NCBI GenBank assembly: GCA_014435945.1
Contig: GCA_014435945.1_4088.1
Strand: one strand, 5' to 3'
Length of the DNA stretch: 64,000 nucleotides
Origin: a phage
The notes beneath the pieces were generated by a model. That model was given only the letters and a program-made list of their open reading frames with translations. It searched no databases and had not been told where the DNA came from. This document shows positions 1-64,000 of the stretch, one piece after another. The position numbers and the translations under genes were made by a program. Every line of letters begins with the position of its first letter. Position 1 is the stretch's first letter.

Positions 1-80
1 AAAAAAAAACAATTTGACTTAAGTTAAATCTTCCTATAATATTATTTATGTAATCAACAATCAACTAAGAGGGTTAACCA

Positions 81-689
81 GTGGTACGATTATGTAAAGA
101 AATCATCCAATCTATTATTATTATTTTCTTAATTAACTTTCCTGCAAGTGCAGGTGTTGAAAGAAAAAGTATCATTAGATATGATGAATCTAAACAGACA
201 GTTCAGTTCATTTCAACTTTAACTGAAAATTCTGTAAACCGTTTGATGGTTTTTAGAGAAACACACCCATTTGACACTATCATCATTACGTCACCGGGTG
301 GTGATTTTGATGCGGGAGTGGCACTAGGAAATTTTGTCAATGATAACAATTTAACAATTATTGTTGAAAGATATTGTAATTCTTCTTGCACTATCGCATT
401 CTTTAGTGCTAATATAGAAAACAGATACATGATGAAGGACTCAATTCTAGGTCTACATAATGTGTCAATCGAAAGTAAAGCACGAAATAGTGATGACACA
501 TACATAACAGTTCGCCAAATGACTATTTTTGCTGAACAGCTATCAACTAAGGTTGGTGTTCTATTTGCGTTATATGCAGCGAATGGTATTCCTCCAGAAT
601 TGTTAGTGGAGGTTAGTAAGGTTCGTGGTAATGAAGTTGTGAGACTTACACCAGATCAGTTGCTCGAATTAGGTAGTATCATTCATTAG
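81..689 (+). CDS. secreted ClpP/crotonase-fold protease-like protein
   Basis: GTG start 8 nt after AAGAGGG; hydrophobic N-terminal signal-like segment; TSPGGDFD motif reminiscent of ClpP-family peptidases. Confidence 0.35.
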   Translation: MVRLCKEIIQSIIIIFLINFPASAGVERKSIIRYDESKQTVQFISTLTENSVNRLMVFRETHPFDTIIITSPGGDFDAGVALGNFVNDNNLTIIVERYCNSSCTIAFFSANIENRYMMKDSILGLHNVSIESKARNSDDTYITVRQMTIFAEQLSTKVGVLFALYAANGIPPELLVEVSKVRGNEVVRLTPDQLLELGSIIH

Positions 690-781
690 TATTAGATACA
701 AAATAATAATATTATAATAAGAGGATGATAAAGTGGTACATCCTTTGTTATAAGTTCACATACACTAGGAGTGTATAAACT

Positions 782-1042
782 ATGACAAATTTACAAAACT
801 TAACATCTCTTGTTTTTTATGCAACAACTATTGTATATTGCATTACATTAGTTTTAACATGTTTCATCTATAAAGACTACAAACGTGGTTTTATGGATTC
901 CAGTACACACAAATTTGCATCCAAGTTCGAAGCAGGAATTTACTATGTTCTATCAATTTCTTATGGAGCATGTTTACTTACACTAGGGTTGCTGATATAC
1001 TGGTTGTATACGGCACTTTTTGCACAAGGAGTTATTTCATGA
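782..1042 (+). CDS. small membrane protein (hypothetical)
   Basis: ATG ORF with two long hydrophobic segments. Confidence 0.4.
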   Translation: MTNLQNLTSLVFYATTIVYCITLVLTCFIYKDYKRGFMDSSTHKFASKFEAGIYYVLSISYGACLLTLGLLIYWLYTALFAQGVIS

Positions 1043-1632
1043 CTTGTATTATCGCTCACACAAATGGCACATCTTCCTTCATCGCTGGTGATAAATTAGG
1101 AAGCAATGGTTTCACTAAAGCAGTTCAAACTGAGCCTAAAGTGTTTGAGAAAGAGTTCATTAAACTCAATGAGGATGGTCTTACTCGCACTAAAGAAGTA
1201 ATGGCGTTAGGGTATACTACATCGTTCCGCATGGGTCAGTTGTTGAATTACAACCTAACTCTACCAGAACAAGTTGCAGGGGAAACCTTTTCACAGTATC
1301 TAGTACTGAAAGTTATTCCTATCATTCGTCAAATGTTTAAAGATGAATGGGGTGCTCGTGATGCATCACAAGATGTTGGTGGTGGTCAGTTCATTATTCT
1401 TCATAATCATACGATTTATGAAGTTCAAGAAGACTTTTCAGTACTGCAACCTAAAACACAAATTACTGCTGTCGGAAGTGGGACTTATCATGCAATTGCA
1501 TCCATGTCAGCGTATATTGAAGTTCAAGAAGAAACCAATGTTCAGTTACATGAACGTGTTGAGTCTATTTTCAAAATTGTTAGTGATAATGTAACAAGTG
1601 TTAGTCCAGAGTTTGATATTTTGAAATACTGA
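1039..1632 (+). CDS. HslV/proteasome-beta-like Ntn-hydrolase peptidase
   Basis: ATG 8 nt after AAGGAG; N-terminus MTCIIAHTNG..FIAGD parallels HslV MTTIVSVRRNG..VIAGD (Thr at position 2); internal AVGSG motif. Confidence 0.45.
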   Translation: MTCIIAHTNGTSSFIAGDKLGSNGFTKAVQTEPKVFEKEFIKLNEDGLTRTKEVMALGYTTSFRMGQLLNYNLTLPEQVAGETFSQYLVLKVIPIIRQMFKDEWGARDASQDVGGGQFIILHNHTIYEVQEDFSVLQPKTQITAVGSGTYHAIASMSAYIEVQEETNVQLHERVESIFKIVSDNVTSVSPEFDILKY

Positions 1633-8283: not shown

Positions 8284-8328
8284 TATCAGTACTGTTATAG
8301 TGGCAGTACTTTTTAATTGGAGATTACT

Positions 8329-10771: not shown

Positions 10772-10810
10772 AGTACTGCTAATTTGGGCAGTTTTTATAT
10801 TAGCAGTACT
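10772..10810. repeat. 12-bp perfect inverted repeat, each arm containing AGTACT
   Basis: AGTACTGCTAAT (10772-10783) and ATTAGCAGTACT (10799-10810) are exact reverse complements with a 15-nt spacer. Confidence 0.8.
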
Positions 10811-25610: not shown

Positions 25611-25887
25611 GTATATTGTAAAATGACAACGGACATTGAAAAATGGATAATGAGAACCTACTTCTCTTGAAAATGTAAAGGATAGATGAGCTTTACCGTT
25701 GTAGCGAACAGCAAAAGAAACCTGTTAGAGTACTGGCAATCAAACAAACACGAGATAAGACCACGAATCACGGCGACACGGCTGTATAAAGAACTCCAAT
25801 AAGCACACAGAGAGTTCCTAGATAGATGTATAAGGTTCGCACCTTACGAATTTGCTAAGGGAGTTCAAGGATTGTGGACGCGATTTT

Positions 25888-25916
25888 ACAAGAAAGTTGC
25901 GTCCAAAATTTGAGAA
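25888..25916 (+). repeat. direct repeat copy 1 (core CGTCCAAAATTTGAGAA)
   Basis: ACAAGAAAGTTGCGTCCAAAATTTGAGAA; 17-nt core identical to copy at 26053. Confidence 0.7.
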
Positions 25917-26040
25917 CAGGTACTACTTTGATCGAATAGAGTTTAGTACTGAGTGCTGTTGATGAAAAGACCAGCGACCGTTGCATATGACTGCGATAGA
26001 GAGAAACCGAGCAACCCGCTTTCGCTCTCTAAATTTTGGT

Positions 26041-27573: not shown

Positions 27574-27946
27574 ATTCCACCAGCATTGTTCTATACATGA
27601 ATGTGATGATTGTGGTATGAACATGAGTGACATTTATACAGTTTCCTGTAAAGGATTCAAATTCACTCACGGTGAACCTGCATATTGTTATGGCACAGAA
27701 GAAGGTGATATCGAAGTAGTACTGAAAGAATTGTTCCAGTACTTGCAAAGTGCAGGTCATGATGTTACAATGCCCACATATTACGAAGATGATTATGACT
27801 CACATGTAGAAGAAAATACATATTATAATCAATTCGTTCATGGTAATGGCTTTATCACATACCTTCATGAGAATGGTATTGAGGTAAAAACTAAGTACAC
27901 TAGTGATGATTACGAAAGTGATGACTCTATGGAGATTGAAGATTGA
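27554..27946 (+). CDS. hypothetical Cys-rich protein
   Basis: 130-aa ORF; CxxxxCxxC cluster near N-terminus; acidic C-terminus. Confidence 0.45.
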   Translation: MQIKKIKFHQHCSIHECDDCGMNMSDIYTVSCKGFKFTHGEPAYCYGTEEGDIEVVLKELFQYLQSAGHDVTMPTYYEDDYDSHVEENTYYNQFVHGNGFITYLHENGIEVKTKYTSDDYESDDSMEIED

Positions 27947-47268: not shown

Positions 47269-48285
<1,017 letters not shown>

Positions 48286-48312
48286 CTTAAACGACCTTAT
48301 GGAGTTATTAAA

Positions 48313-48846: not shown

Positions 48847-48849
48847 GAC

Positions 48850-49395: not shown

Positions 49396-49408
49396 GGAGA
49401 ATCAACAC

Positions 49409-50920: not shown

Positions 50921-50942
50921 TAACTAAAAGGATTTATTTAAA

Positions 50943-51935: not shown

Positions 51936-51936
51936 G

Positions 51937-52329
51937 ATGGGATATAATTATCGTGAATTGGTTGAAGCATTAGATGAAATCACTTCTAGTGAAGAATCTA
52001 CTGAAGAAGAAAGTTTTGCAGTTGAGACTCCTTCTGATGCTGTTGCCACCGATTTACTTAAAGATATCACCGAATGCCTTATCCACATTGTGGATAAGGT
52101 TAAATCAGGTGAAGATCAAAAAGAAATCGTAGAAAAGCTTCAAAAAGCGTGTGACATTTTATCGGATGTTCGATATAATGATGAAAGTACTGAAGAAGTT
52201 GATGAATCCACTGATTGCTGCTTCGGAACCAAAGATATGGGTCCGAAAATTGGTAAAGATGGTGTCCAAGACTATAAAGTTAAAGATGCTCCTTCATATG
52301 CAGCAAGACAGGGTTTCGTGGGGATGTAA
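51937..52329 (+). CDS. hypothetical acidic protein
   Basis: 130 aa. Confidence 0.45.
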   Translation: MGYNYRELVEALDEITSSEESTEEESFAVETPSDAVATDLLKDITECLIHIVDKVKSGEDQKEIVEKLQKACDILSDVRYNDESTEEVDESTDCCFGTKDMGPKIGKDGVQDYKVKDAPSYAARQGFVGM

Positions 52330-52332
52330 TTT

Positions 52333-52710
52333 ATGATTCCTGAACCACACAACAGTACTGAATTTCAAAACGATGTACTTTTAAAAGTTAGAGAAGTACA
52401 TGGATCAGACGCTGAATTAACAGACCGTATGCTTCTGATGTCAATTTTTGAAAATTTCAGAACTGGCGGTGGTTTAAGACTTAGCAAGTTTGGATATACA
52501 ATTTGTAAAGAAAACATTCTTTATGAATTTACAAAAATCCCCTTGCAAAGAGAGTTCAAAAGTTCTATAATCTTTACATCGCTTGATAGGATATGTACTT
52601 CACCCTACTATGTAGAAGGGCAGTACATATACCTCTCGGACGCAATGATAGTTACAGAGTTAACATTGTGTGGTGATGATTTTAGAATGTTATTTTCGAT
52701 GCACATGTAG
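52333..52710 (+). CDS. hypothetical protein
   Basis: 125 aa. Confidence 0.45.
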   Translation: MIPEPHNSTEFQNDVLLKVREVHGSDAELTDRMLLMSIFENFRTGGGLRLSKFGYTICKENILYEFTKIPLQREFKSSIIFTSLDRICTSPYYVEGQYIYLSDAMIVTELTLCGDDFRMLFSMHM

Positions 52711-52736
52711 CTTCGAAAATAAAGAAAAAAAAGATG

Positions 52737-52764
52737 TTGACAACGCCGAATGATGTGTTATAAT
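52737..52764 (+). promoter_or_regulatory. sigma70-type promoter P1 (tandem copy 1)
   Basis: TTGACA, 16-nt spacer, TGtTATAAT (extended -10); ~40-nt unit repeated at 52829. Confidence 0.6.
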
Positions 52765-52828
52765 GACCACCACGAAGCAAGTTTTCAAAATCACAAGATG
52801 TGAGATTGAAAAAGAAATAAAAAAGTTG

Positions 52829-52856
52829 TTGACAAGCCTGAACGATGTGATATAAT
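52829..52856 (+). promoter_or_regulatory. sigma70-type promoter P2 (tandem copy 2)
   Basis: TTGACA, 16-nt spacer, TGaTATAAT; near-identical to P1. Confidence 0.6.
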
Positions 52857-52919
52857 GACCACATCAAGACGGCAAAGAGAAATGCCTTTTTAAATACACG
52901 GATGATTCATGAAGTAACA

Positions 52920-52960
52920 AAGGAACTGATAAGTTAAAAATTCTTTTAACACAGTTCCTT
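52920..52960 (+). other. long nested hairpin followed by T-rich tract (attenuator/terminator-like)
   Basis: AAGGAACTG ... CAGTTCCTT outer stem enclosing GTTAAAA-attc-TTTTAAC; followed by TACTTTTG. Confidence 0.5.
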
Positions 52961-52987
52961 TACTTTTGCCCACGGATTGGCTATAAT
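52959..52987 (+). promoter_or_regulatory. possible third promoter (weak -35)
   Basis: TTTACT, 17-nt spacer, TATAAT; 41 nt upstream of the MoxR ATG. Confidence 0.35.
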
Positions 52988-53027
52988 AGAAACCTAAACG
53001 ATTTTATCCAACAAAAGGAAAATATAC

Positions 53028-54356
53028 ATGTCTACTCAAAACAACGATATCCTGAACGTAAAACTGACTCCTAAGAAAGCTAAAGAAGCAATGGCACTGG
53101 CTGACATGATTCAAGATAGCCTGATGATTTGGGGTAGCCCTGGTATCGGTAAATCTGCCATCGCACGTCAATACGCTGATGAGAACTACCCACTGCGTAA
53201 AGATAACGTGGCAAAAATTGAGTTCATGAAACAACAAATCGAAGCTGATACTGAAAATGCTGATCAACTTCGCCGTGAACTGGCAGCGTTTGAAGCCAAA
53301 CTAATCGACCAAGACACTAACTTTATCGATTTCCGTTTGTCTCAGATTGAACCAAGTGACCTTCGCGGTATCCCAGTTCCAGAGAAAGTGTTCCTTGATA
53401 TGGATGGTAAGCAACTGATTGAATCTGAACTGGCTAGTGCACAAGATTACATCGCTGAAACAGCAGTTGTGTGGGCAGCACCTAAAGTACTGAAACTGTC
53501 TCCAGATTGGAAAGGTGTTATTCTGTTTGACGAAATCAACTCTGCAATGCCGATTGTACAGGCAGCGTCTTATCAGCTAATCCTCGACCGTTGTGTTGGT
53601 GAGATGAAGCTACCTAAGACTGCACTGATTCTCGCAGCAGGTAACCGTGAAACTGATGGCGGTGTAACGTTCTCTCTAGCTACACCACTGCGTGACCGTA
53701 TGACCCACATCGAAATGATTCCTTATCATCAAGATTGGATTAACGATTATGCGATTGGTAAGCGTTTGAACCCAGCAACTGTAGCGTTCATCAACAACAC
53801 TGGTGCTAAACACTTCAACACCCTTAGCCCACAAGATCCTTCTCACTGTGGTGGTACTTCTCCACGTTCATGGGAAGCAGTAGCACGCTACGAAGATCTG
53901 AAGAAAGTTAAGAACATTGATAAAGAAGTGTTCCGTGCGATGATTGCAGGTCGTGTTGGTGAAGGCGTAGCAACTGAATACATCGAGTATGTTGATAACG
54001 TAGCTAAACTACCAGATACCATGTCCATCCTACAGGGTGAGATTAAAGAGATTGATGCTTCGCTTGATATTTCCGCGAACTACTTCATCACTCTGAATCT
54101 GGTTTACAAAATTATCGACCTCTACAATGAGAAGCAAGAACAACGTCTACCAGTGGAAGATTGGGGTAAGCTGTGCAACAACTTCATCACCTTCCTAGAC
54201 CATAACTTCTCTGCAACTCAAGCAGAACTGGCAGTACTGGCGATTCGTACCATCACGCTTCATAAAGTAGCGATTACGATTAAAGATGTACCAGCGTTTA
54301 AAGACTTCGTTATGAAGTACTCTGACCTAGTACGTAAAGCACGCTCTCTTGGTTAA
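53028..54356 (+). CDS. MoxR-like AAA+ ATPase
   Basis: Walker A WGSPGIGKS, Walker B ILFDEIN; size and pattern of MoxR/CbbQ-type ATPases. Confidence 0.8.
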   Translation: MSTQNNDILNVKLTPKKAKEAMALADMIQDSLMIWGSPGIGKSAIARQYADENYPLRKDNVAKIEFMKQQIEADTENADQLRRELAAFEAKLIDQDTNFIDFRLSQIEPSDLRGIPVPEKVFLDMDGKQLIESELASAQDYIAETAVVWAAPKVLKLSPDWKGVILFDEINSAMPIVQAASYQLILDRCVGEMKLPKTALILAAGNRETDGGVTFSLATPLRDRMTHIEMIPYHQDWINDYAIGKRLNPATVAFINNTGAKHFNTLSPQDPSHCGGTSPRSWEAVARYEDLKKVKNIDKEVFRAMIAGRVGEGVATEYIEYVDNVAKLPDTMSILQGEIKEIDASLDISANYFITLNLVYKIIDLYNEKQEQRLPVEDWGKLCNNFITFLDHNFSATQAELAVLAIRTITLHKVAITIKDVPAFKDFVMKYSDLVRKARSLG

Positions 54357-54380
54357 TAATTAAAAAGAGTGTTGACAAGG

Positions 54381-54406
54381 AGGATACCACATGGTATCCT
54401 TCTTTT
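54381..54406 (+). terminator. intrinsic terminator
   Basis: AGGATACC-acat-GGTATCCT followed by TCTTTT. Confidence 0.6.
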
Positions 54407-54431
54407 ATCTTAACTAAACGAGGAAATACAA

Positions 54432-55841
54432 ATGTCAGATAAACGTTTCAGTGATGTTACTCCGGCTCTCCAGAAAGAATGTCAAGATCGTCTGATCTTA
54501 GCTCGAACATCTTTAATGCTAACATTCCCATTCTTTGGTGTACTGGCTTCTCGTCTGCGTCCAGTTGCAAACAACACATGGTGTCGTACTTTGGCTGTAG
54601 ATGGTAAGCATTTATTCTACAACGTAGAATTCATCATGGGTATTCAGGACCAATCCAAAAAGTCAGCATACGAAGAAGCAATTCGTGAGAAACATCCTGA
54701 AGTAACTGAAGAACAACTTAAAGAAATGACAGAAGGTTTGACTGATGAAAACCTGATTGCAGTTATTTGTCATGAAATTCTTCACTGTGCATATGACCAC
54801 TTCTTGCGTCGTGGTATGCGTGACCCGCAGCGTTATAACCGTGCTGCTGACTATGCAATTAACCAGATTCTTGTTCGTGATAAAATTGGTAAAATCCAAA
54901 GCCAATGGCTGTACGATAAAAAGTACGATGGTATGACTGCTGAAGAGATTTATAACATTCTCGAAGAAGAAGATAAACAGGATCAAGACGGGGAAGGTGA
55001 AGGAAATCCACAGGCTGGTAGTGGTGAGGGTGAAGGTAAATCACGCGGTACTTTTGGTGATATCAAAGATGGTAAAGGCAAAGGTACAACAATCGACCAG
55101 CATGACGTTCCACAAGAAGGTCAAGAAGGTGGTTCAAGTGATAAACAAAAACGTGATTATATGGATGATTTCAAAACAGCAATGATGAATGCTGCTCGTG
55201 CAGGTGGTACTCCTGCTGAAATCGCACGTATGATTAACAACTTCAAAGAACCTAAGATTGACTGGCGTTCCAAACTTCACCGCACACTGCGTAGCTGGTT
55301 GAAGTCTGATGCAACTTATCAAAATCCTAATCGTCGTTCATGGGGTGCTGGTTTTGGTAGTTCTGGTTCATTCTACGGGAATCCAATCTTCCCTGGTATG
55401 AAACCAGATGATGATATTGATATTGCAATTGCACTAGATGCATCCGGTTCTATCTCTGAAGATATGCTCCGTGATTTCATCAGTGAAGTACTGGGTATCA
55501 CTAAGCAGTTTAAACAATTTAAAATCCGTATCATGACGTTCGATACTGAAGTTTATACTGTTAAAGATTACAAAACTGGTGAAGAGAGTAAGATTCTCGA
55601 ATATCCAGTGAAAGGTGGTGGTGGTACTGACTTTGAAGCAGTATGGGTTCATATGAAGCATGACAACTATAAGCCTAAACAGCTTATTATGTTTACCGAT
55701 GGTGAGCCGTGGCAGTCATGGGGTGATCCTGATTACTGTAAGACACTGTTTGTTATCCACAGTAATCCTAACAAACAAGCACCATTTGGCGAAACTGTAC
55801 ACTACGAATATGAAGCTGACAAAAAGCGTCAACGTAGCTAA
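54432..55841 (+). CDS. von Willebrand factor A domain protein with N-terminal metallopeptidase-like domain
   Basis: HEILHCAYDH (HExxH) in N-terminal half; C-terminal MIDAS motif DIAIALDASGS; Gly/Glu-rich linker. Confidence 0.7.
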   Translation: MSDKRFSDVTPALQKECQDRLILARTSLMLTFPFFGVLASRLRPVANNTWCRTLAVDGKHLFYNVEFIMGIQDQSKKSAYEEAIREKHPEVTEEQLKEMTEGLTDENLIAVICHEILHCAYDHFLRRGMRDPQRYNRAADYAINQILVRDKIGKIQSQWLYDKKYDGMTAEEIYNILEEEDKQDQDGEGEGNPQAGSGEGEGKSRGTFGDIKDGKGKGTTIDQHDVPQEGQEGGSSDKQKRDYMDDFKTAMMNAARAGGTPAEIARMINNFKEPKIDWRSKLHRTLRSWLKSDATYQNPNRRSWGAGFGSSGSFYGNPIFPGMKPDDDIDIAIALDASGSISEDMLRDFISEVLGITKQFKQFKIRIMTFDTEVYTVKDYKTGEESKILEYPVKGGGGTDFEAVWVHMKHDNYKPKQLIMFTDGEPWQSWGDPDYCKTLFVIHSNPNKQAPFGETVHYEYEADKKRQRS

Positions 55842-55853
55842 GTACTAAATAAT

Positions 55854-55885
55854 GAGAACGGAAAATTCCGTTCTCTACTTTTTTC
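55854..55885 (+). terminator. intrinsic terminator
   Basis: GAGAACGG-aaaatt-CCGTTCTC followed by TACTTTTTTC. Confidence 0.75.
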
Positions 55886-55907
55886 AGCGGGACAGCTTGG
55901 AAAAAGG

Positions 55908-55916
55908 TGATATAAT
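55908..55916 (+). promoter_or_regulatory. extended -10 promoter element (TGATATAAT)
   Basis: TGATATAAT 35 nt upstream of the 55951 ATG. Confidence 0.4.
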
Positions 55917-55950
55917 TATATTTGTAACAACATACATGGAGAGTATTAAA

Positions 55951-56181
55951 ATGGAACAAGAACCAGAAAAAATTCAACTAACCCTAATCGACCTAATCAA
56001 CGCTGCTAAAATCATGGAAGCTGCTGTTGCTCGTAATTCATTTAAAGTCGAAGAACTTGTTGATGTTGCTCCAGTCGTATCTAAGTTTGTTGAGTTTGCT
56101 AACTCTGCACTCGAAGATATCAAAGCACAAGAAGAAGCTGATGCTGCACAAGCTGCTGCTGAACAAAATAAAGGAGAATAA
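55951..56181 (+). CDS. hypothetical acidic protein
   Basis: ATG after GGAGAG; 76 aa (ORF track started upstream at 55852). Confidence 0.45.
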   Translation: MEQEPEKIQLTLIDLINAAKIMEAAVARNSFKVEELVDVAPVVSKFVEFANSALEDIKAQEEADAAQAAAEQNKGE

Positions 56182-56183
56182 TA

Positions 56184-56837
56184 ATGGCTATTCGTCACGT
56201 TGGTGTAGTACGTAATACGGGTTCACGAGTATTTGTGGTATGGCGTTCACTCCCTGATGATCCAGAACATTGTCTCATTGTTTATCGCGACTCACTTCCT
56301 GAAGCATATGCTCAATCTGTTGCAGATTTAGTAATGAATCAAGGTCAATCGAATGTAGATTTGTGGGAAGTTATGCATAAGATTGGTCATCTAGACGGTC
56401 GCAAAATGCTAGATGTTCTTCATAATCTACAACATTTGCGTCGTGCACGTACTTGTGATATTGATATGCATGTTGGTGGAAACAGTAAGATTTCTCTTGA
56501 TGTTCTAAACACCGCAATCAATGATAATGATGCTAAAAAACATGAAGATGGTAAAGTTAAAGAATACAACCCATTCAAGCCACAAGAAGTTGATACTTCT
56601 GTTGAAGAAGCTACCATTGTTGAGCAACTACTTAAAGATGCACAACGTTATGAGCAGTTGGCTAAAGAGCACTTTGAACGTGCTTACAACTTAGAACCAT
56701 CTCTACGTCCACAAGTTCAAGCAACACCTGTAGCACCTGATAGCAAAACTTTCTATATTGAAATCCCAGAAGGAATTTCACAAACCAAAGCAATTGAGAA
56801 AGTTAAACAGGCATTTGCTGAACGTAAAGCAAAATAA
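56184..56837 (+). CDS. hypothetical protein
   Basis: 217 aa. Confidence 0.5.
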   Translation: MAIRHVGVVRNTGSRVFVVWRSLPDDPEHCLIVYRDSLPEAYAQSVADLVMNQGQSNVDLWEVMHKIGHLDGRKMLDVLHNLQHLRRARTCDIDMHVGGNSKISLDVLNTAINDNDAKKHEDGKVKEYNPFKPQEVDTSVEEATIVEQLLKDAQRYEQLAKEHFERAYNLEPSLRPQVQATPVAPDSKTFYIEIPEGISQTKAIEKVKQAFAERKAK

Positions 56838-56842
56838 TATAA

Positions 56843-57436
56843 ATGAATAAAATAGAATTAGATGAAGCAATCAATGGTTTATCTAATGTATGTTTCAGTG
56901 GCGGGGCAGCAGGTGCTGACCGCCTTTTTTCTATCTATGCAAAAGACAATGGATTTGAAGTAATAAATTTTTCATTCAAGGGTCACCAAAGCAGTGTAGA
57001 TGAAAATACTATATTAGAAATTCCATCCAATATCCTTTGTGATAGTTCAATATTAAAACAATTAAACATTGCATGTTACTCTTTACGCCGTAAAGTTCCT
57101 AAGCCTGGTTCGTATGTATATAACTTACTTGCAAGGAATAGTTACCAGATACTTAATACTAAAAGAGTATATTGTATTGCAAATATTACATCACCCACGC
57201 AAGTTTCAGGTGGAACTGCATGGGCAGTACAGATGTATATGGATTCAGTTGACAATCCAGAAATATATTGTTATGATATGAACACTCGCTCTGTATTTTA
57301 TTATGATACAGTACTGAAAGAGTTTACTGAAACATTCTCAATACCAGCACCACACGGTAACTGGACTGGGATTGGTTCACGTAATGCTACACAAAAACAC
57401 ATGGAACACTTTATTACATTTTTCAAGGACGTATAA
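56843..57436 (+). CDS. hypothetical protein (possible DprA/LOG-like Rossmann fold)
   Basis: N-terminal CFSGGAAGADRLFSIYA resembles GxAxGxD of DprA/LOG-like proteins; tentative. Confidence 0.3.
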   Translation: MNKIELDEAINGLSNVCFSGGAAGADRLFSIYAKDNGFEVINFSFKGHQSSVDENTILEIPSNILCDSSILKQLNIACYSLRRKVPKPGSYVYNLLARNSYQILNTKRVYCIANITSPTQVSGGTAWAVQMYMDSVDNPEIYCYDMNTRSVFYYDTVLKEFTETFSIPAPHGNWTGIGSRNATQKHMEHFITFFKDV

Positions 57437-58365
57437 TGAAACAACTACAAGAACTATATCAAAGAATTCTGGATCAAGGTGTCGAAAGCGTTGATCGTAC
57501 TGGTGTTGGCACTATCAAGCTAATCGGACAACAAATGCGTTTTGACCTAAAAGAAGGTTTCCCAGCAGTAACTACTAAACGTTTAGCTTGGAAAGCAATG
57601 ACTTCAGAATTGTTATGGTTTATTGAAGGTTCTCACGATGAGCGTCGTCTGTGTGAAATTTTACACGGGACACGTGATGTAGAAAAGAAAACAATTTGGA
57701 CAGACAACTACCTTAATCAAGGTGTAAGCCTTGGGTATTCTGATGGTGAGCTTGGCCCAGTTTATGGTAAACAATGGCGTGAATGGGAAGATTATAAATT
57801 CAGTTCCAGTACTGAAGAAATTCAAGAACTAAAAGATAAAGGGTATAAAGTTATTGATTATACTGGTTCACATGGTGTTATTATGCGTCGTGTAACTGAC
57901 CAGCTAAAACAAGTTATTGAAGGTATCAATACTGATCCATACGGTCGTCGTCACATTCTAAGTGCATGGAACGTTGGTGAGCTTGATGCTATGACTTTGC
58001 CACCCTGTCATAGCTTTGTGCAGTTTTGTGTTGTACAGGGTAAACTAAGTTGTATTCTTCATCAACGTAGTGCTGATCTATTCCTTGGTGTACCATTTAA
58101 TATTAGTAGTTACTCACTACTAACTCATATGATTGCACAAATTACAGGGTTAGATGTTGGTGAATTTATTTGGAATGGTGGTGACTGCCATATCTATCAA
58201 AACCATATTGAACAAGTAAAAGAGCAACTCCAACGTGAACCACGTACATTACCAGAATTATGGCTAGATCCTACTATTACTGATATTGAAGATTTCACTA
58301 TGGATTCTTTCAAATTAGTTAATTACGATCCAATGCCAACAATCAAAGCACCAATGGCTGTATAA
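57436..58365 (+). CDS. thyA: thymidylate synthase (ThyA type)
   Basis: DRTGVGT, GPVYGKQWR, SAWNVGELD, catalytic LPPCH, HQRSADLFLGVPFNI; ~30-aa insertion relative to E. coli ThyA. Confidence 0.9.
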   Translation: MKQLQELYQRILDQGVESVDRTGVGTIKLIGQQMRFDLKEGFPAVTTKRLAWKAMTSELLWFIEGSHDERRLCEILHGTRDVEKKTIWTDNYLNQGVSLGYSDGELGPVYGKQWREWEDYKFSSSTEEIQELKDKGYKVIDYTGSHGVIMRRVTDQLKQVIEGINTDPYGRRHILSAWNVGELDAMTLPPCHSFVQFCVVQGKLSCILHQRSADLFLGVPFNISSYSLLTHMIAQITGLDVGEFIWNGGDCHIYQNHIEQVKEQLQREPRTLPELWLDPTITDIEDFTMDSFKLVNYDPMPTIKAPMAV

Positions 58366-58397: not shown

Positions 58398-60362
58398 TTA
58401 TCTTAATGTAACCAGTGTACGTCCGGCAAATCTCACATCAGGAGTTGCAGGGATACTGAACACTACGCTTGTTCCATTGAATGTAACACTATCAACTTCA
58501 ACACGAGTGTAAACACCAGTACTTACGAGTTCTTGAATTTCAGCAGTTACTATGTTACTAGCAGTTACTGTTAATGTGTAATATGAGCCGTTTAAAACCC
58601 ACGCTGACGCAGTAAACGGGTCAGTACGTACAGAACCAGAACCAATTGGAACCCATTGTCCTTGGACCTTCTGCATCGATGTACGTTCGGTATTTGAGTA
58701 TGCAATCATACCATCAACACCAACTGAGTTATCAATTGTAGCCAGTACTGGTAATTGAATACCATATCGGTTGAAACGAGTACGAATAACACCGTTATCA
58801 TATATACTTACATCAGCATAACTTCCCATAGTGAAACGTAAGTCTGCACCAAGTAGTTTTATATCACTTTGGTTTGTAGTACTTTCTAATGTGAATACAC
58901 CATTCTCTAGTAAGTTTATGTTTTTGAATTTGTTATTAGTTCCATTGAAATTAGTATTTGCATTATAAGTACTAACACCATTAACTGTAATAGTGTCACC
59001 AGTAGTGTCGCCTAGTGTTGTATTACCTTTAACAACTAAATTCCCGCTGGCAGTGATGTTACCTGCGTTTAAATCACCAGTTAGTGATGTTGATCCATCT
59101 ACAATAATATTTCCATGAAAATGTGATTCACCATTTTTAAATTCAACTTGAACTTTATTCATTGAACTTAAAGAAATAATATTACTACTTGCACTTATCC
59201 CTACGTTTGTGTTTGATGCATTATCAAAACGTATTACTGGCGTAGCTGCTGGTGTAGCGGTAGTTTGGAATAATGTTAATGTTCCATTATTAATTCTAAC
59301 ACGCTCAGTTCCGGCTGTTGTAAAACCAATTGCGTCATCGGATGGATGAAATATACCAGTATTAGCATCGGACCACTTAGTTGGGTCATTACCTGGGTTA
59401 TTCGTTGGGTCAAACGGATTATTATTAAATGTCAATGCTGGTGCTGCTGCACTGCCATACACCACCCCAAAACGCCCAGAGCCGTCTGTTCCATCATTAT
59501 ACATGGAATCGCCAGTTCTACGTAAACACTCAATCACAACGTTATCTATGGATGTTTGAACGGTCCCTGCGTTTGTTCTAAATTGGCGATGATTTGCAAT
59601 CATTACAGTATTGTCATATAATACTGAAGCAGCGGAAATGCTTGTTCTTGACTGACGAAGACGTATATTCTTATCTTCAGTTATAATAATCCAATCACCA
59701 TCTGAAAGTGCAGTTTGGTTCATTGGAACACCAGATGCAAATGGTTTGGTCAAGTCAGTATCTGTTGCTAAATTTTCAAGGCCATCATGTCCAGTACTGG
59801 GAATAGATGCAGTAATAATTCTAGCAAAAGCGTATGTTACTAGTTTAGCACCAGATATATTTGGATTAGAGTCAACATAATATAAAATTTCAATCCAATT
59901 ACCTTGTCCAGTTGGATTTGTAGGTGTAAATGTAACAGGACTTGTTTGTGGATTATTTGCTTCATAATGTGCTTGTGCGGCATCCATTATACCACGAACG
60001 ACATAATAATCACCATTAAGCGATGGTGATGGTGCTGGTAGTGGAGTTTGTGCTAAAGGTGGATCGATATCATCTGGGATGGGATTATATGTACCAACAA
60101 ATTGTAAACCACTAGTTACTGAATCTGGTAATTGGGAAGTAAGAAGTTTACCGTTTGCATCTAGGTTTGCAAAACGTCGATATGCCATTGAACCATCTTC
60201 AAAGTCTAGTACACCTTCAAATGCTTTCCATCCTTTATTGTATCTAATCATCCCTGATCTAACCACATCAGCGGTTTCTTTAGTCGGTGCTTTAGGTAAT
60301 TCTAGAAATGCCTGACTATCTATAATTACACCACCATCACCTCTAATTCGATTTATACTCAT
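58398..60362 (-). CDS. tail fiber / receptor-binding protein
   Basis: 654 aa, Gly/Thr/Asn/Ser-rich with short beta-repeat character; convergent with + strand genes. Confidence 0.55.
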   Translation of the reverse strand: MSINRIRGDGGVIIDSQAFLELPKAPTKETADVVRSGMIRYNKGWKAFEGVLDFEDGSMAYRRFANLDANGKLLTSQLPDSVTSGLQFVGTYNPIPDDIDPPLAQTPLPAPSPSLNGDYYVVRGIMDAAQAHYEANNPQTSPVTFTPTNPTGQGNWIEILYYVDSNPNISGAKLVTYAFARIITASIPSTGHDGLENLATDTDLTKPFASGVPMNQTALSDGDWIIITEDKNIRLRQSRTSISAASVLYDNTVMIANHRQFRTNAGTVQTSIDNVVIECLRRTGDSMYNDGTDGSGRFGVVYGSAAAPALTFNNNPFDPTNNPGNDPTKWSDANTGIFHPSDDAIGFTTAGTERVRINNGTLTLFQTTATPAATPVIRFDNASNTNVGISASSNIISLSSMNKVQVEFKNGESHFHGNIIVDGSTSLTGDLNAGNITASGNLVVKGNTTLGDTTGDTITVNGVSTYNANTNFNGTNNKFKNINLLENGVFTLESTTNQSDIKLLGADLRFTMGSYADVSIYDNGVIRTRFNRYGIQLPVLATIDNSVGVDGMIAYSNTERTSMQKVQGQWVPIGSGSVRTDPFTASAWVLNGSYYTLTVTASNIVTAEIQELVSTGVYTRVEVDSVTFNGTSVVFSIPATPDVRFAGRTLVTLR

Positions 60363-60408
60363 TTAAATATTTCCTCAGAATAGATTATATATTAAGTATT
60401 TATTTTAG

Positions 60409-60439
60409 ATAAAAGAAAAGGCCAACCATAGTTGACCTT
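60409..60439 (-). terminator. intrinsic terminator (minus strand)
   Basis: On the minus strand AAGGTCAAC-uaug-GUUGGCCUU followed by UUUUCUUUU. Confidence 0.6.
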
Positions 60440-60452
60440 TAAAAAATATAAA

Positions 60453-61232
60453 TTAACGAGTACGCTCAGGAATATCAATACCTTCATATACCCATACAGC
60501 CGCCTGTTGTGCTTTATAAATTGCATCTTCATCAGCATCAGGAACTGCATCAATGTCAGCACATTGCTTATCACACTCTGCGAATAGTGATTCAACCATA
60601 GCAAATGCTTCCGTGTATAGTTGTGTCATGTCAGCAGCAGATAGTTTAACAATTGCATCATCAAGGAAAATAGAAACACTATCAGCACCTGAAGTTACTT
60701 GAGTGTAATAGTTAAGAAGCATTTGACGACCAGCTAGATCAGTACTATAACGATGACCGTTAAACATATAACCAGCATTAATACGGTCACTACGAGATGA
60801 TACGGTGCGTGCTTTCAGATCAGATTTAACTGATGCAATATCCATATCAACATAATTATAAGTTTTCAGTACTGTTAACTCTTTATATTCACCTTCTGCT
60901 TCTTCTAAGAATGTAATGACTGGTTGATTACTATCTAGTAGTTTAATATATTCCAAATTCTCATTAATTGCGTTCACGTTACCAACATTCTTATATTCCA
61001 ACCACCAGAACCCCTCTTCTTTACGAACAGCGTTATTAGGTTCAATTTCAGAACCATCTTTACTTGAAATACCATAAAGTGCACGAATATCGCTGTACAA
61101 ATAACGATATGTTTGTTCATCATCTGGAGTTGCTCCAGGGCGTTCTTTTAAACCCTTAACACCAACTGGGTTGGAGATGATGTTACCCAATTCATAATTT
61201 TCTTTAGAACTACCTTTTACATATGTAAACAT
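60453..61232 (-). CDS. hypothetical protein between fiber genes (possible fiber-associated)
   Basis: 259 aa; minus-strand ATG preceded by GAGGT; acidic C-terminus. Confidence 0.5.
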   Translation of the reverse strand: MFTYVKGSSKENYELGNIISNPVGVKGLKERPGATPDDEQTYRYLYSDIRALYGISSKDGSEIEPNNAVRKEEGFWWLEYKNVGNVNAINENLEYIKLLDSNQPVITFLEEAEGEYKELTVLKTYNYVDMDIASVKSDLKARTVSSRSDRINAGYMFNGHRYSTDLAGRQMLLNYYTQVTSGADSVSIFLDDAIVKLSAADMTQLYTEAFAMVESLFAECDKQCADIDAVPDADEDAIYKAQQAAVWVYEGIDIPERTR

Positions 61233-61255
61233 ATAACTACCTCACTTGTTAAGAT

Positions 61256-61289
61256 GGTGTCACCATTATTGATGACACCGTTTTTTTTT
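61256..61289 (+). other. hairpin followed by T9 on the + strand (terminator-like, antisense to fiber module)
   Basis: GGTGTCA-10 nt loop-TGACACC followed by TTTTTTTTT; the T-run is on the + strand although flanking genes are on the minus strand. Confidence 0.45.
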
Positions 61290-61299
61290 ATTTTAATTA

Positions 61300-64000
61300 T
61301 TAAGCAGTACGTTGTGCAATGAACAAATCAGTAACTGAACTTACACCATCATAAATTACTTGGTAAATGGTCACGCTACCAGCAGTTTTGTTTAGTTCAC
61401 CATCAACAACAGCATAAGTACCATCAGTTGTAAAGTTTCTGTTACCAGTTGTATCTTGTTTAACATAGATGTATACTGATGCAGCTTTACCACCACCAAT
61501 TAGGCCAGTAATTGGAGCCAACGTGGTATCTTGGTCTAGAGTGATGAAGTATACGTTACTTGTACCATCTGGAGTCCATGTTCCGGTTGGAGCAATTACT
61601 GATGATGTAACTTGAGTTGGGATTACATCATACTTTTTGGTAGTTACTGTTGTAGTAGTTAAGTTAGCATTAGTAGTGGTTAGTTCACCAGTTACTGTTA
61701 CTGCCTTATCAAACACAGCATTTTCTTTAAATGATGAAGTTGCATTAACGGTTAGAACGTCAGCCGCTGCGTCACCTAATGTTACGTTACCATTCGCAGT
61801 TAGTGCTCCTGTTACTGCTAGTGTTCCACCTACTGTTGCGTTACCAGTAACGGATGCACTTGCAAGTGTAGCCAAACCTGATGTTGTAATTGTAGAAACG
61901 GTTGTTGCACCGAATCCAGCAGTACCAGTTGCAGAGATATTACCACCTACTGTTAGGTTACCAGCAGTGATACCAACAGTACCAGTGATGTTTGCACCAC
62001 TTGACATAGTTACTGCACCACCAAATGAACCAGTAGTAGTAACTTCTAAAGTATTACCTTTAAGCAATCCAGTTGCAGTGATAGAAGTACCAGCAGTAAT
62101 TGAAGTGTTAGCAGTAATTGAAGTGCCAGCCGCTACGTTGTTAGTTGCAGTCAAAGACTTAACAGCTACATCGGAATCTGCTTGGTTCAATTGTGCATTT
62201 AGTACACCAGTAACAGTAAAGTCACCGTTGTTTACAACGTTACCATTAACGATTAGGTTGTTGTTTTGTGAACCGACTTCACCAATTGTTGCAGAACTTG
62301 AAATAATTGCCGCACCAGCAGTAATATTACCAGCAGAAGATAAAGAATCGGATGCTATTACTGCAAACGGTTCTAGTGTTTGTCCACCAACATCGATATC
62401 TGCGTTAATACCACCTTCAACACGTAGTTTACCAGCAATATAAGTGTCTGGCATAATCTGTACAGTTTCAGGCTGCTCACCTAATGGTGTACCAACTGTT
62501 AGAGTTGCACCAGTTTTAACAGAACCTAGTGTTGTTTGACCAACTACACCTAGTGTACCACCAACGGTTGCGTTGTTAGTTACTGCTAGACCAGTTCCTG
62601 AACCATTCAAGGTTGCAGATGGAGCAGTTACTGCACCAGAAGTTAGTGTTCCACCAATTGTTGCTAAACCAGTTACACCTAATGTTCCACCAAGGGTAGC
62701 ATTACCTGTCGCATTTAATGTTTCAGATAGAGTTAGTGTTTTAGCAGAGATATCTGCACCAGTTAGATCTAAGCTACCAGGAGTTAGTGTTCCAACTACA
62801 GTTACATCGTTACCAAATGTCGCAGCACCAGTAACGCCAAGAGTAGTACTGAAAGAGCCACTTGTTGCAGATACACCAGAAGTTACGATAGAACCAAGTG
62901 ATGCTTGACCAGTTACTCCTAATGTACCACCAATAGTTGCATTATTAGTTACTGCTAGTGCAGTACCAGTACCGCTTAGGGTTGCCGATGGAGCAGTTAC
63001 TTCACCAGTTACACCTAATGTTCCACCTACTGTTGTGTTACCACCAAAGGAAGCTGCACCATCAGAGTGAATAGTTTCAGATACTGACAAACTCTTAGCT
63101 GTAATGTCAGCAGTTGTTAGGTCTAAACCACCTGCTGGTGTGAATACACCTTCAACAGTTACATCGTTGTCAAATGTAGCTGCACCAGTAACATCCAATG
63201 TAGAACTAAATGTACCAGTACTACCCGATACAGCACCGGAAACCAATGAACCAACAGTTGTTACACCAGTAATATTCACAAGACCAGTTACAGTCAATGG
63301 ACCTGAAGATAATGAGCCAGTTACACCTAATGTTCCACCAACGGTCGCATTGTTAGTAACACCCAAACTACCAGCATTCACTGTGCCAGATGCAGTAACA
63401 TCAGTAGTACTAACACCACCACTTAGTGTGCTTAGGCCAGTTGCAGTGATGGTTGAAGCAGTTGCAAGACTATTAGCAGAAATATCTGCACCAGTTAGGT
63501 CAATACCACCTTGTGGAACCAATTCACCTTCAACTGTTAGTTTCTGAACAGTACTATCACCAGATACATTTAAGGATGCAGCACTTAGTGCAGCTACTGT
63601 ACTTTGACCAGTTACATTTAAAGTGGTGTTTACTGTAGTGTTGTTTAAAGTTGTATCACCGGATACTAATATAGCGTTGGTATTGATACCACCAGCATCA
63701 ACTTGAATACCACCAGTGCTTACAGTTACTTTCTTGCCGATATTTACGATATCAGTTAGGGTAGTTGCACCAGTTACTGAAGCAGTACCTGCGACTGAAA
63801 GGTTTCCAGATACGGATGGGCTACCAGTTACAACACCAGTTGTTAGTACTAGGTTACCACCAACGGTAGTATTACCAGAACTAGCAAGGGTAATTGCTGA
63901 AACATTGGAAGAACTTAAATCAATTGAACCATTAACAACTAGGTCACCACCAATTGTAGCACCTTCAGTAGTACTTAGGGATTTAGAACTAATATCGGTA
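61300..64000 (-). CDS. tail fiber protein with repetitive GT-rich units, 5' end beyond window
   Basis: ORF-track start (TTG at 63522) is internal: the same minus-strand frame has no stop from 63523 to 64000; repeated GGTLGVTG-type units. Confidence 0.6.
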   Translation of the reverse strand, partial: TDISSKSLSTTEGATIGGDLVVNGSIDLSSSNVSAITLASSGNTTVGGNLVLTTGVVTGSPSVSGNLSVAGTASVTGATTLTDIVNIGKKVTVSTGGIQVDAGGINTNAILVSGDTTLNNTTVNTTLNVTGQSTVAALSAASLNVSGDSTVQKLTVEGELVPQGGIDLTGADISANSLATASTITATGLSTLSGGVSTTDVTASGTVNAGSLGVTNNATVGGTLGVTGSLSSGPLTVTGLVNITGVTTVGSLVSGAVSGSTGTFSSTLDVTGAATFDNDVTVEGVFTPAGGLDLTTADITAKSLSVSETIHSDGAASFGGNTTVGGTLGVTGEVTAPSATLSGTGTALAVTNNATIGGTLGVTGQASLGSIVTSGVSATSGSFSTTLGVTGAATFGNDVTVVGTLTPGSLDLTGADISAKTLTLSETLNATGNATLGGTLGVTGLATIGGTLTSGAVTAPSATLNGSGTGLAVTNNATVGGTLGVVGQTTLGSVKTGATLTVGTPLGEQPETVQIMPDTYIAGKLRVEGGINADIDVGGQTLEPFAVIASDSLSSAGNITAGAAIISSSATIGEVGSQNNNLIVNGNVVNNGDFTVTGVLNAQLNQADSDVAVKSLTATNNVAAGTSITANTSITAGTSITATGLLKGNTLEVTTTGSFGGAVTMSSGANITGTVGITAGNLTVGGNISATGTAGFGATTVSTITTSGLATLASASVTGNATVGGTLAVTGALTANGNVTLGDAAADVLTVNATSSFKENAVFDKAVTVTGELTTTNANLTTTTVTTKKYDVIPTQVTSSVIAPTGTWTPDGTSNVYFITLDQDTTLAPITGLIGGGKAASVYIYVKQDTTGNRNFTTDGTYAVVDGELNKTAGSVTIYQVIYDGVSSVTDLFIAQRTA

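Follow-up and report, generated by a model that had tools for sequence, protein, structure and literature searches.

The hexamer palindrome AGTACT is present in large excess throughout a 64,000-base stretch of jumbo coliphage DNA (the window), where it is under selection at the level of the DNA itself. One clade of jumbo phages is the sole bearer of this enrichment among the genomes sampled, and a promoter design that holds AGTACT in fixed register is conserved across several genera. On balance we lean towards AGTACT being a candidate site of a clade-specific, symmetric DNA-binding protein that would both mark phage DNA and act at early promoters.

Selection on AGTACT at the DNA level

The window belongs to a Rak2-like jumbo coliphage (Asteriusvirus) with 99.7% identity to vB_Ec-M-J, and its G+C content of 36.1% is close to the ~35% assumed in an earlier, sequence-only reading of the same DNA. 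AGTACT occurs 150 times (2.3 per kb) against about 20 copies expected, a roughly 7-fold excess that makes it the most over-represented of all 4,096 hexamers and bears out the several-fold enrichment claimed by that reading, whose local counts were exact (7 copies in 27,001-29,000, 6 in 46,001-48,000 and 14 in 48,001-58,000). Dinucleotide-preserving shuffles (n = 100) gave a mean of 20.4 copies (sd 3.9, maximum 28), none reaching 150, and expectations were 21.5 under a mononucleotide model and 20.1 and 34.5 under order-1 and order-2 Markov models, respectively. The order-4 Markov expectation is high (126), as the inflation extends to the 5-mers AGTAC and GTACT. The 8-bp palindrome CAGTACTG was found 36 times compared with 1.16 in shuffles, and the longer palindrome TTCAGTACTGAA noted previously was confirmed at two exact positions (Table 1). 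The intergenic copies reported earlier are also present, but at positions up to 6 bases from those given (true positions 8288/8305, 10772/10805, 25729 and 25945).

The excess persisted under null models that preserve proteins and codon usage. Codon-aware nulls were run on the 96 called genes of the window, in which 140 coding copies were observed; 26.2 were expected (maximum 41) when codon order was shuffled within genes, and 37.2 (maximum 58) when synonymous codons were permuted with each protein and the codon usage of each gene kept. Coding copies are distributed 70/24/46 among the three frames, each at 3 to 5 times its null, rather than being confined to one frame or to a few Ser/Thr-rich genes, and ORF-free DNA carries about 2.4 copies per kb compared with 2.3 overall. 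The word is present in all three frames and in non-coding DNA, which excludes a peptide motif. The favoured status of the codons AGT, ACT and GTA and the order-4 expectation might suggest that the excess simply follows from composition, codon usage, proteins rich in Ser-Thr or a family of dispersed repeats. Yet Ser-Thr dipeptides occur at only 1.3 times expectation (70 of 127 are encoded AGTACT, while 71 of 126 Val-Leu dipeptides are encoded GTACTN), no direct or inverted repeat family of at least 30 bp in the window carries the motif, and outgroup phages of similar G+C content contain 1 copy where 10 are expected. The codon-aware nulls, the spread over frames and intergenic DNA, and the outgroups together refute such an origin, to which we attach a negligible probability.

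Distances between sites in the window are compatible with an exponential distribution (KS p = 0.33), each 8 kb holding 12 to 22 sites, and a short-range check for periodic spacing revealed none except a promoter pair at 20-23 bp. Minus-strand genes carry the word at similar density, as expected of a signal read on double-stranded DNA. Genome-wide, most sites (about 900) are intragenic and distant from promoters.

Table 1. Location of AGTACT features in the 64,000-base window.
Feature	Coordinates	Strand	Observation
Dispersed AGTACT, 150 copies, 36 as CAGTACTG	1..64000		Near-random spacing, uniform density
Perfect 12-bp palindrome TTCAGTACTGAA	7865..7876		Sequence match
Perfect 12-bp palindrome TTCAGTACTGAA	49421..49432		Sequence match
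Two intergenic AGTACT, 17 bp apart	8288..8310		ORF-free; just 5′ of RBS and start of gene at 8317; third AGTACT of the group at 8345, within that gene
Intergenic inverted repeat AGTACTGCTAAT ... ATTAGCAGTACT, AGTACT at either end	10772..10810		Intergenic in vB_Ec-M-J annotation; followed by a terminator-like hairpin, upstream of nrdD
AGTACT at 25729 and 25945	25729..25950		Within a 690-bp ORF-less stretch
Terminal-repeat promoter design: AGTACT, 14 bases, AGTACTTGCAA, TACAAT -10-like hexamer	27718..27775	+	Intragenic; AGTACTTGCAA is a -35-like TTGCAA abutting the palindrome; sole instance of the design in the window
Minus-strand genes with 10 AGTACT in 5.1 kb	58398..63522	-	Counts; about usual density

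The sequence around AGTACT is mirror-symmetric over about 24 bp, that is, to about 9 bp on each side, beyond which flank information is at background. The preferred flanks are C at -1 and G at +1, T at -3/-4 and A at +3/+4, and A at -7/-8 and T at +8/+9, a symmetry that is found within genes almost all on one strand. Word and flanks are two-fold symmetric, and therefore cannot encode orientation.

Individual sites are conserved above background. Aligned AGTACT sites are shared with PBECO4 in 65% of cases compared with 43% for all hexamers, and with GAP32 and CBB in 31-32% compared with 15-16%; where the amino acid is unchanged, codons are identical in 86% of cases inside the motif and 71% outside (74% and 58% for GAP32). 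A word could also be inflated without functional selection, by a neutral drive arising from mutation or repair (very-short-patch-type biased repair or biased gene conversion, for instance), as in the precedent of E. coli CCWGG; turnover against PBECO4 is balanced (38 sites lost, 34 gained), and repair bias restoring existing sites could in principle also yield excess conservation. The depletion of one-mismatch neighbours that such a drive predicts was nevertheless seen in none of nine neighbour pairs, eight being at or above expectation and the sole low pair containing AGG/CCT, which is rare in general. Lost and gained sites trace to a wide range of neighbours without one prevailing route, the annotated nucleases showed no Vsr-like gene, and both the positional conservation of sites, synonymous ones included, and the promoter register kept across genera also speak against a drive, which we consider highly improbable. 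The proposal of the sequence-only reading that selection acts on the DNA and not on a peptide is thus upheld by the codon-aware nulls, the occurrence in all frames and intergenic DNA, the synonymous conservation and the symmetric flanks.

Clade distribution and early promoters

The complete 357-kb genome of vB_Ec-M-J contains 1,125 copies of AGTACT against 128 expected (8.8-fold), with CAGTACTG enriched 63-fold and TTCAGTACTGAA present 24 times against an expectation of 0.04. Comparison with relatives and the host showed enrichment in all seven Rak2-like phages of Enterobacterales sampled, the relatives being PBECO4, RaK2, GAP32, CBB, Munch and fHe-Yen9-04, and none in the outgroups PA5oct and Atu_ph07, in T4, in T5 or in E. 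coli, where the word stands at 0.1-0.4 times expectation. E. coli has about 0.06 sites per kb and a phage of the vB_Ec-M-J type about 3, so that the phage carries some 40-50 times the host density. We found no published account of AGTACT enrichment. The earlier suggestion that the phage lineage supplies the reader of the motif gains indirect support from this pattern, with one clade enriched and other coliphages and the host without enrichment.

Phages are known for avoiding palindromes, and avoidance in this genome is extreme: it has been purged of 23 other hexamer palindromes, and GCGC is completely absent from the same clade (0 in phage compared with ~7 per kb in the host). That several genera retain one palindrome in over 1,000 copies amid such avoidance therefore points to an unrecognised protein-DNA system.

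AGTACT density peaks at the physical ends of the genomes: the terminal repeats carry 6.4-6.7 copies per kb, and 16 copies fall within the opening 2 kb of CBB, as many as in the opening 1.7 kb of vB_Ec-M-J. Nineteen promoters in the terminal repeats have the form AGTACTTGC-N16-19-TAnAAT, and 12 have the form AGTACTGTATAAT. A two-site design, AGTACTTGCA-N9-10-AGTACT-N-TATAAT, was identified in vB_Ec-M-J, CBB, RaK2, GAP32, fHe-Yen9-04 and metagenomic jumbo contigs, and CBB keeps it though most of its terminal-repeat genes are unrelated to those of vB_Ec-M-J. One AGTACT abuts the -35 hexamer in these promoters and the other sits in the spacer, where a single base separates it from the TATAAT that follows; their centres are ~21 bp apart and therefore on the same helix face. 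Genome termini do not lie at AGTACT, and the analysis gave no sign of nicking, of modification at the word or of a role at packaging ends; the full list of activities offered earlier (binding, nicking, modifying, packaging, recombination) covers too much to be scored as a whole. The sequence-only reading had missed the promoter link, the clade-wide distribution and the total absence of GCGC.

Candidate readers of the word

We infer from these observations that a protein reads AGTACT and that the phage supplies it. With its flanks (Y-C-AGTACT-G-R) the word would be the recognition site of a two-fold symmetric, dimeric double-stranded DNA-binding protein, putatively specific to Rak2-like jumbo phages of Enterobacterales and probably phage-encoded or virion-carried. 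Selection would retain about one site per 350-420 bp genome-wide, and from the gap in site density between phage and host AGTACT would thus work as a mark of phage DNA. The same putative protein may act at the host-type early promoters in the long terminal repeats, where the geometry fits the shut-off or tuning of early transcription by such a factor, and binding would serve to control promoters as well as to mark, organise or protect the genome as a whole. Counting against this reading are the intragenic position of most sites and the outcome of domain searches, in which the annotated regulators, the terminal-repeat proteins that are conserved and the genes beside the phage sigma factor yielded no DNA-binding domain. 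Restriction/modification enzymes recognise palindromes as compact as 6-8 bp more typically than helix-turn-helix regulators do, and the reader could therefore be a modifying enzyme.

If the word were the target of a phage orphan DNA methyltransferase or other base-modifying enzyme, its enrichment would serve an epigenetic mark. AGTACT is the Type IIP restriction site of ScaI/Eco255I and has the compact 6-bp palindromic shape that is classic for Type II targets; such targets are normally avoided by phages, whereas AGTACT is 7-9-fold enriched, and the purge of hexamer palindromes and GCGC implies that carriage of 1,125 ScaI-type sites would be hazardous without some form of protection. At least two orphan methyltransferases are encoded by the clade, and there is a parallel with the cyanobacterial palindrome HIP1, whose inner CGATCG and GATC words are methylated. 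The only methyltransferases found, however, have likely specificities that do not point to AGTACT, although sequence alone does not fix the target of such an enzyme. One is of the phage Dam family (PF05869/TIGR01712; N6A), the studied members of which target GATC. The other is a C5 enzyme that aligns full-length with the catalytic domains of DNMT3A/B, suggesting a CpG-type target, and AGTACT lacks CpG; RaK2 DNA has been reported with methylated CpG (PMC3622015). C-to-T decay products are undepleted (AGTATT plus AATACT at 1.05 times expectation), and methylation alone explains neither the enrichment nor the fixed promoter register. We regard this explanation as unlikely.

Alternatively, AGTACT may be a Chi-like control word for a translocating enzyme (a nuclease or helicase, from phage or host) that spares word-rich DNA and destroys host DNA lacking the word; being palindromic, the word would work from either end. 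The density gap between phage and host, the uniform spacing and the peak at the physical genome ends all fit this possibility, true Chi is itself enriched in the phage, and with GCGC at zero the clade shows the converse use of sequence content too. Known Chi words are, however, asymmetric and read on a single strand, whereas AGTACT and its flanks are two-fold symmetric, with neither asymmetry nor orientation bias, and the symmetric 24-bp pattern indicates duplex recognition. Such a role would also leave the fixed promoter register unexplained, and no candidate was found among the annotated nucleases; we consider it decidedly unlikely.

The phage word could also copy the site of a host protein in order to hijack it, for example SlmA, with a resulting block of cell division. 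The site of this nucleoid-occlusion factor, GTGAGTACTCAC, is a palindrome with AGTACT as its central hexamer, and SlmA requires G, T, purine, A and G at positions 1-5 of the 12-bp palindrome (PMC3020112). Every enriched phage infects Enterobacterales. The flanks required by SlmA are nevertheless disfavoured in the phage: the base at -1 is most often C (44%) and least often G (10%), there are 5 copies of GAGTACTC where 4.1 are expected, and GTRAGYRCTYAC has no match in 357 kb, which contradicts SlmA-site mimicry. T4 and T5, which share the same host, avoid AGTACT, and hijacking of a host protein in general is very improbable.

Tentatively, and at rather long odds, AGTACT and GCGC might form a two-word code by which these jumbo phages with unmodified DNA distinguish self from host, AGTACT being the positive mark and GCGC the negative. 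The reader of AGTACT would be a phage protein with a role in organising, protecting or licensing phage DNA and with control over early promoters, and a phage nuclease could destroy the GCGC-bearing host chromosome without modification of phage DNA bases.

Parallels and significance

The closest analogue of AGTACT appears to be HIP1 (Highly Iterated Palindrome 1, GCGATCGC), a palindrome that is hyper-abundant genome-wide in cyanobacteria (PMC5861425). Both are short palindromes that are hyper-abundant in all frames and intergenic DNA, conserved above background and apparently selected, and both are without a known peptide, RNA or single-gene function; for AGTACT we found composition-aware excess, presence in every frame and in non-coding DNA, and conservation over control words, as in HIP1-type words. 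HIP1 occurs in cells and AGTACT in a virus. The AGTACT core is 6 bp (8-12 bp with flanks) and enriched 7-9-fold (52-63-fold for the 8-mer) compared with 15-300-fold for HIP1, and, unlike HIP1, AGTACT has fixed positions in early promoters and no known methylation word inside. A periodicity of 10-90 kb has been reported for HIP1, for which a 357-kb phage genome is too small for comparison.

Chi, the uptake sequences (USS/DUS) and KOPS are asymmetric, orientation-biased bacterial signal words with known readers. They resemble AGTACT in being short, selected and present at high, roughly even density, whereas AGTACT is a palindrome with symmetric flanks; they identify own DNA through a dedicated reader protein, a role that is proposed for AGTACT. 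TF1 of phage SPO1 resembles the mechanism proposed for the reader: it is phage-encoded, binds phage DNA selectively, and has preferred sites overlapping early promoters in the long terminal redundancy, and it presumably dampens transcription from them. SPO1 marks its DNA by a modified base (hydroxymethyluracil), whereas the AGTACT phages are proposed to do so by a sequence word, and no HU-like gene was identified in the AGTACT phage.

Much that is unusual in the codon usage of these genomes is explained by AGTACT, namely AGT-ACT for Ser-Thr and GTA-CTG for Val-Leu, CTG being otherwise among the rarer Leu codons. Rak2-like phages are a group under development for therapy, and recoding or engineering of these phages should respect the word. 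If AGTACT is a true mark, it would reveal by what means a large phage whose DNA is unmodified, and which lacks a nucleus-like shell, distinguishes its own DNA from that of the host, and would provide a fast genetic model for hyperabundant palindromes, of which HIP1 has been a puzzle for more than 20 years.

Abundance of AGTACT and its independence of coding constraints

The window contains 150 copies of the hexamer AGTACT, against 20.4 ± 3.9 (maximum 28) in dinucleotide-preserving shuffles; no other of the 4,096 hexamers is as over-represented. Its half-extended forms CAGTAC (106) and GTACTG (103) rank behind it, and the 8-bp palindrome CAGTACTG is present in 36 copies compared with 1.2 expected. 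The several-fold excess across the window proposed in a sequence-only reading is therefore borne out; the local counts in that reading were exact and its coordinates lay at most 6 bases from the true positions. The gene content of the window (anaerobic ribonucleotide reductase, PhoH/PIN protein, tail sheath and tube proteins, tail fibres) fits a Rak2-like jumbo myovirus, and a 6-kb piece showed 99.7% identity to phage vB_Ec-M-J (OQ718158.1, 378,573 bp, genus Asteriusvirus) and ~76% identity to the PBECO4/121Q group. No RNA genes were found in the window by Rfam or tRNA scans. Using the entire vB_Ec-M-J sequence as a stand-in for the complete genome, we found 1,125 copies of AGTACT against 128 expected by composition, 256 of CAGTACTG against 4.1, and 24 of TTCAGTACTGAA against 0.04. 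Each 10-kb bin of the unique region to 350 kb carried 1.1-3.9 sites per kb; the 21.5-kb direct terminal repeats, along with the 7 kb immediately left of the right repeat, are denser, at 6.4-6.7 per kb. The test for periodic spacing suggested by the sequence-only reading was negative: gaps between sites in the window fit an exponential distribution, with no helical or other short-range period except a promoter-associated pair 20-23 bp apart.

The 96 genes called in the window contain 140 copies. Shuffling codon order within each gene gave an expectation of 26.2 (maximum 41), and permuting synonymous codons, with proteins and per-gene codon usage kept, gave 37.2 (maximum 58); the latter null is conservative because AGTACT itself inflates the codon usage being preserved. 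Counts in the three reading frames are 70, 24 and 46, exceeding their respective nulls 3- to 5-fold, and ORF-free and coding DNA do not differ in density, in agreement with the multiple frames and intergenic copies noted earlier by eye. AGTACT spells 70 of the 127 Ser-Thr dipeptides, and GTACTN 71 of the 126 Val-Leu dipeptides, 32 of these with CTG, elsewhere one of the less used Leu codons. Together, the two codon-aware shuffles and the frame and intergenic tallies rule out a codon or dipeptide artefact. A dispersed repeat was also rejected as the carrier, since no repeat family of at least 30 bp in the window contains AGTACT. The commonest Ser codon in the window is AGT (478 of 1,425), partly owing to AGTACT, and a phage-encoded tRNA-Ser(GCU) reads AGY codons.

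Coordinates of features in the window and in related genomes
Genome	Position	Feature	Details
Window	13639-16335	Gene, ~900-residue protein	No Pfam match; shares a 73-nt stretch (79% identical, near 3' ends) with its neighbour, of which it may be a paralogue
Window	16952-19681	Gene, ~900-residue protein	No Pfam match; neighbour of the preceding gene
Window	24735-24788	Sigma-70 promoter	Weaker copy of the tandem promoters
Window	25581-26272	690 bp without ORF of at least 100 codons	Unannotated in vB_Ec-M-J too; two AGTACT sites; no Rfam match
Window	25887, 26040	30-nt direct repeat in this stretch	90% identical
Window	27577, 40042, 63689	Chi octamer	
Window	52717-52770, 52809-52862	Tandem near-consensus sigma-70 promoters	92 bp apart; A-rich upstream stretch, TTGACA, 17-bp spacer, TG-n-TATAAT
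Window	53028	AAA ATPase gene	Downstream of the tandem promoters
Window	61700-63520 (minus)	Tail-fibre gene	Imperfect internal repeats of ~62-71 nt, 4-6 copies, 60-80% identical, encoding a repetitive fibre segment
vB_Ec-M-J	1-1760	Left genome end	Non-coding, dense with short repeats
CBB	1-2000	Start of terminal repeat	Non-coding, dense with short repeats
vB_Ec-M-J	280881-281690	C5 methyltransferase	269 aa
vB_Ec-M-J	293332-293421	tRNA-Ser(GCU)	

Restriction to one phage lineage and absence of GCGC

A survey of 25-50 kb per genome, with 100 kb for E. coli K-12, provided the comparison with relatives and host suggested by the sequence-only reading: AGTACT is enriched in Rak2-like phages and lies below expectation in PA5oct, Atu_ph07, T4, T5 and E. 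coli K-12. The trait is thus a property of a single phage lineage rather than of all phages infecting these hosts, and a reader of the word provided by that lineage is favoured over an effect general to the host. The phage carries ~40-50 times as many sites per kb as the host. A counterpart palindrome in PA5oct was rejected, as the seemingly 6-fold enrichment of CTGCAG is accounted for by trinucleotide content (14 copies versus an order-2 expectation of 9.9, from analytic Markov expectations).

AGTACT and GCGC in sampled genomes
Genome	AGTACT observed	AGTACT expected	GCGC
PBECO4	117	16.8	0
RaK2 (Klebsiella)	114	16.6	0
GAP32 (Cronobacter)	114	16.8	0
CBB (Pectobacterium)	65	10.0	0
Munch (Salmonella)	42	8.4	0
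fHe-Yen9-04 (Yersinia)	67	8.5	0
PA5oct (Pseudomonas), distant relative	1	10	Normal
Atu_ph07 (Agrobacterium), distant relative	1	10	Normal
T4	3	8.4	Normal
T5	2	8.0	Normal
E. coli K-12 (100 kb)	6	23	715

The tetramer GCGC is absent from the window (41 expected from shuffles), from the 378-kb vB_Ec-M-J genome (383 expected) and from every AGTACT-rich relative sampled, compared with ~7 per kb in E. coli; among the sampled genomes, AGTACT enrichment and GCGC absence always go together, neither occurring without the other. In vB_Ec-M-J a further 23 G+C-rich hexamer palindromes, including GGTACC, CGTACG, CCATGG, GAGCTC and GGATCC, have zero copies in 378 kb where 12-39 each were expected. RaK2 avoids such palindromes less strongly (GGTACC 8 versus 3.7 expected), although its lower G+C puts the expectations for most of these words under the cut-off applied. 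This avoidance appears to be confined to a narrower lineage than AGTACT enrichment and GCGC absence.

Flank symmetry, conservation and use at early promoters

Across 983 non-redundant sites the flanks of AGTACT are mirror-symmetric: C at position -1 (44%) is matched by G at +1 (47%), T at -3/-4 by A at +3/+4, and A at -7/-8 by T at +8/+9, while the opposite choice next to the core, G at -1 or C at +1, is disfavoured. Symmetry over ~24 bp, although nearly all genes lie on one strand, is the trace that a protein binding duplex DNA as a dimer would be expected to leave; recognition in RNA or in a single strand would not produce it. Sites are also conserved beyond background. Against PBECO4, 70 of 108 aligned sites (65%) are intact compared with 43% of all hexamers in the same alignment, and against GAP32 and CBB 31-32% compared with 15-16%. 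Among codons whose amino acid is unchanged, those wholly within AGTACT are identical more often than those outside in both PBECO4 (86% versus 71%) and GAP32 (74% versus 58%), and the difference holds for the same codon inside and outside the word (ACT 0.88 versus 0.66; TAC 0.87 versus 0.60). Synonymous-codon conservation, the codon-aware nulls, the use of all frames and the ORF-free copies uphold the earlier argument for selection on the DNA word rather than on a peptide. Turnover is balanced (38 sites lost, 34 gained) with no dominant mutational path. One-mismatch neighbours are not depleted, which argues against a VSP-type repair drive, and a repair drive has a lower probability.

In the vB_Ec-M-J terminal repeat, almost all of the small early genes have, directly upstream, a sigma-70-type promoter with AGTACT at fixed places. 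Nineteen promoters have the form AGTACTTGC-N16-19-TAnAAT, in which the palindrome and the -35 hexamer TTGCAA overlap by one base, the T that ends the former and begins the latter. Twelve have the form AGTACTGTATAAT, in which the palindrome occupies the spacer and is separated from the -10 hexamer by a single base; several combine both placements, with copies 20 bp apart. The same design (aaaAGTACTTGCA, 9-10 bases, gAGTACTtTATAAT) and an equal AGTACT density, with 16 sites in the first 2 kb, were found in the CBB terminal repeat, where only ~10 of ~50 genes are detectably related to those of vB_Ec-M-J. Scanning IMG/VR for AGTACTTGC-N9-13-AGTACT-N-TATAAT returned 30 stretches, nearly all from jumbo contigs of 345-378 kb, RaK2, GAP32, CBB and fHe-Yen9-04 among them; all are AGTACT-rich save one 17-kb contig (4 sites versus 2.8 expected), and none contains GCGC. 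Centred at ~-37.5 and ~-16.5, two helical turns apart, the paired sites look like operators of an early-transcription factor. Beyond the early region, strong sigma-70 promoters do not contain AGTACT, an example being the tandem pair at 52,717-52,862 in the window.

The left-end repeats of vB_Ec-M-J and CBB comprise GGCTAGATGG- and CTAAACGGCTAGA-like units plus ...CCCTGGATGG, with 16 AGTACT sites. This repeat-rich end recalls the region of T5, likewise rich in repeats, that halts DNA injection.

Candidate readers and possible roles of the word

The E. coli nucleoid-occlusion factor SlmA binds GTGAGTACTCAC, which has the same central hexamer as the phage motif, and requires G-T-purine-A-G at positions 1-5 (PMC3020112). 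Hijacking of SlmA was rejected: the phage favours C and avoids G beside the core, against these requirements, GAGTACTC is at expectation, and the phage genome contains no SlmA-type 12-mer. The packaging signal envisaged by the sequence-only reading failed as a cut site, physical genome ends and terminal-repeat boundaries lying away from AGTACT. That the word is a modification target is a lower-probability explanation. The phage C5 methyltransferase aligns end to end with the mammalian DNMT3A/3B catalytic domains, which span more of it than matches to the bacterial M.HhaI or M.HaeIII; being DNMT3-like over its whole length, it fits the CpG methylation reported for RaK2 DNA (PMC3622015) and not AGTACT. 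The second methyltransferase is of the phage Dam family; neither enzyme points to AGTACT as its target. Ten standard restriction enzymes all cut DNA of the close relative fEgEco12 in the expected way (PMC13070987), so this DNA is not hypermodified.

A Chi-like role for AGTACT is also assigned a lower probability. The E. coli Chi octamer GCTGGTGG itself is enriched in vB_Ec-M-J (32 plus-strand and 13 complement copies, ~1.3 expected each), with nine plus-strand copies within each terminal repeat, and may protect the phage against RecBCD. Pfam, PHROGs, NCBIfam and PDB sequence searches gave no DNA-binding assignment to a reader protein among the annotated regulators, methyltransferases, nucleases, genes adjoining the phage sigma factor and ten terminal-repeat proteins, most of which have a homologue in the CBB repeat.

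The nearest described phenomenon is HIP1 of cyanobacteria, another hyperabundant palindrome, which occurs in every frame, is maintained by selection and has no established function (PMC5861425). AGTACT shares these traits of abundance, frame and selection; unlike HIP1, it is viral, lies in a genome that otherwise purges palindromes, is built into promoters and is paired with the total absence of another palindrome, GCGC. Full-text literature searches and the RaK2, CBB, fEgEco12 and Sharanji papers gave no mention of the motif (a scope that excludes subscription-only articles such as the GAP32 paper), and its enrichment is apparently undescribed so far.

These data show that AGTACT is a duplex DNA word under selection, restricted to one lineage, distributed genome-wide and used at early promoters. 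From its symmetry, clade restriction and promoter geometry we infer that its reader is a phage-supplied protein acting as a dimer. Promoter-associated sites number at most a few dozen of ~1,000, so a promoter role is not the whole story; the ~900 intragenic sites could mark phage DNA for organisation, protection or the selective action of phage enzymes.
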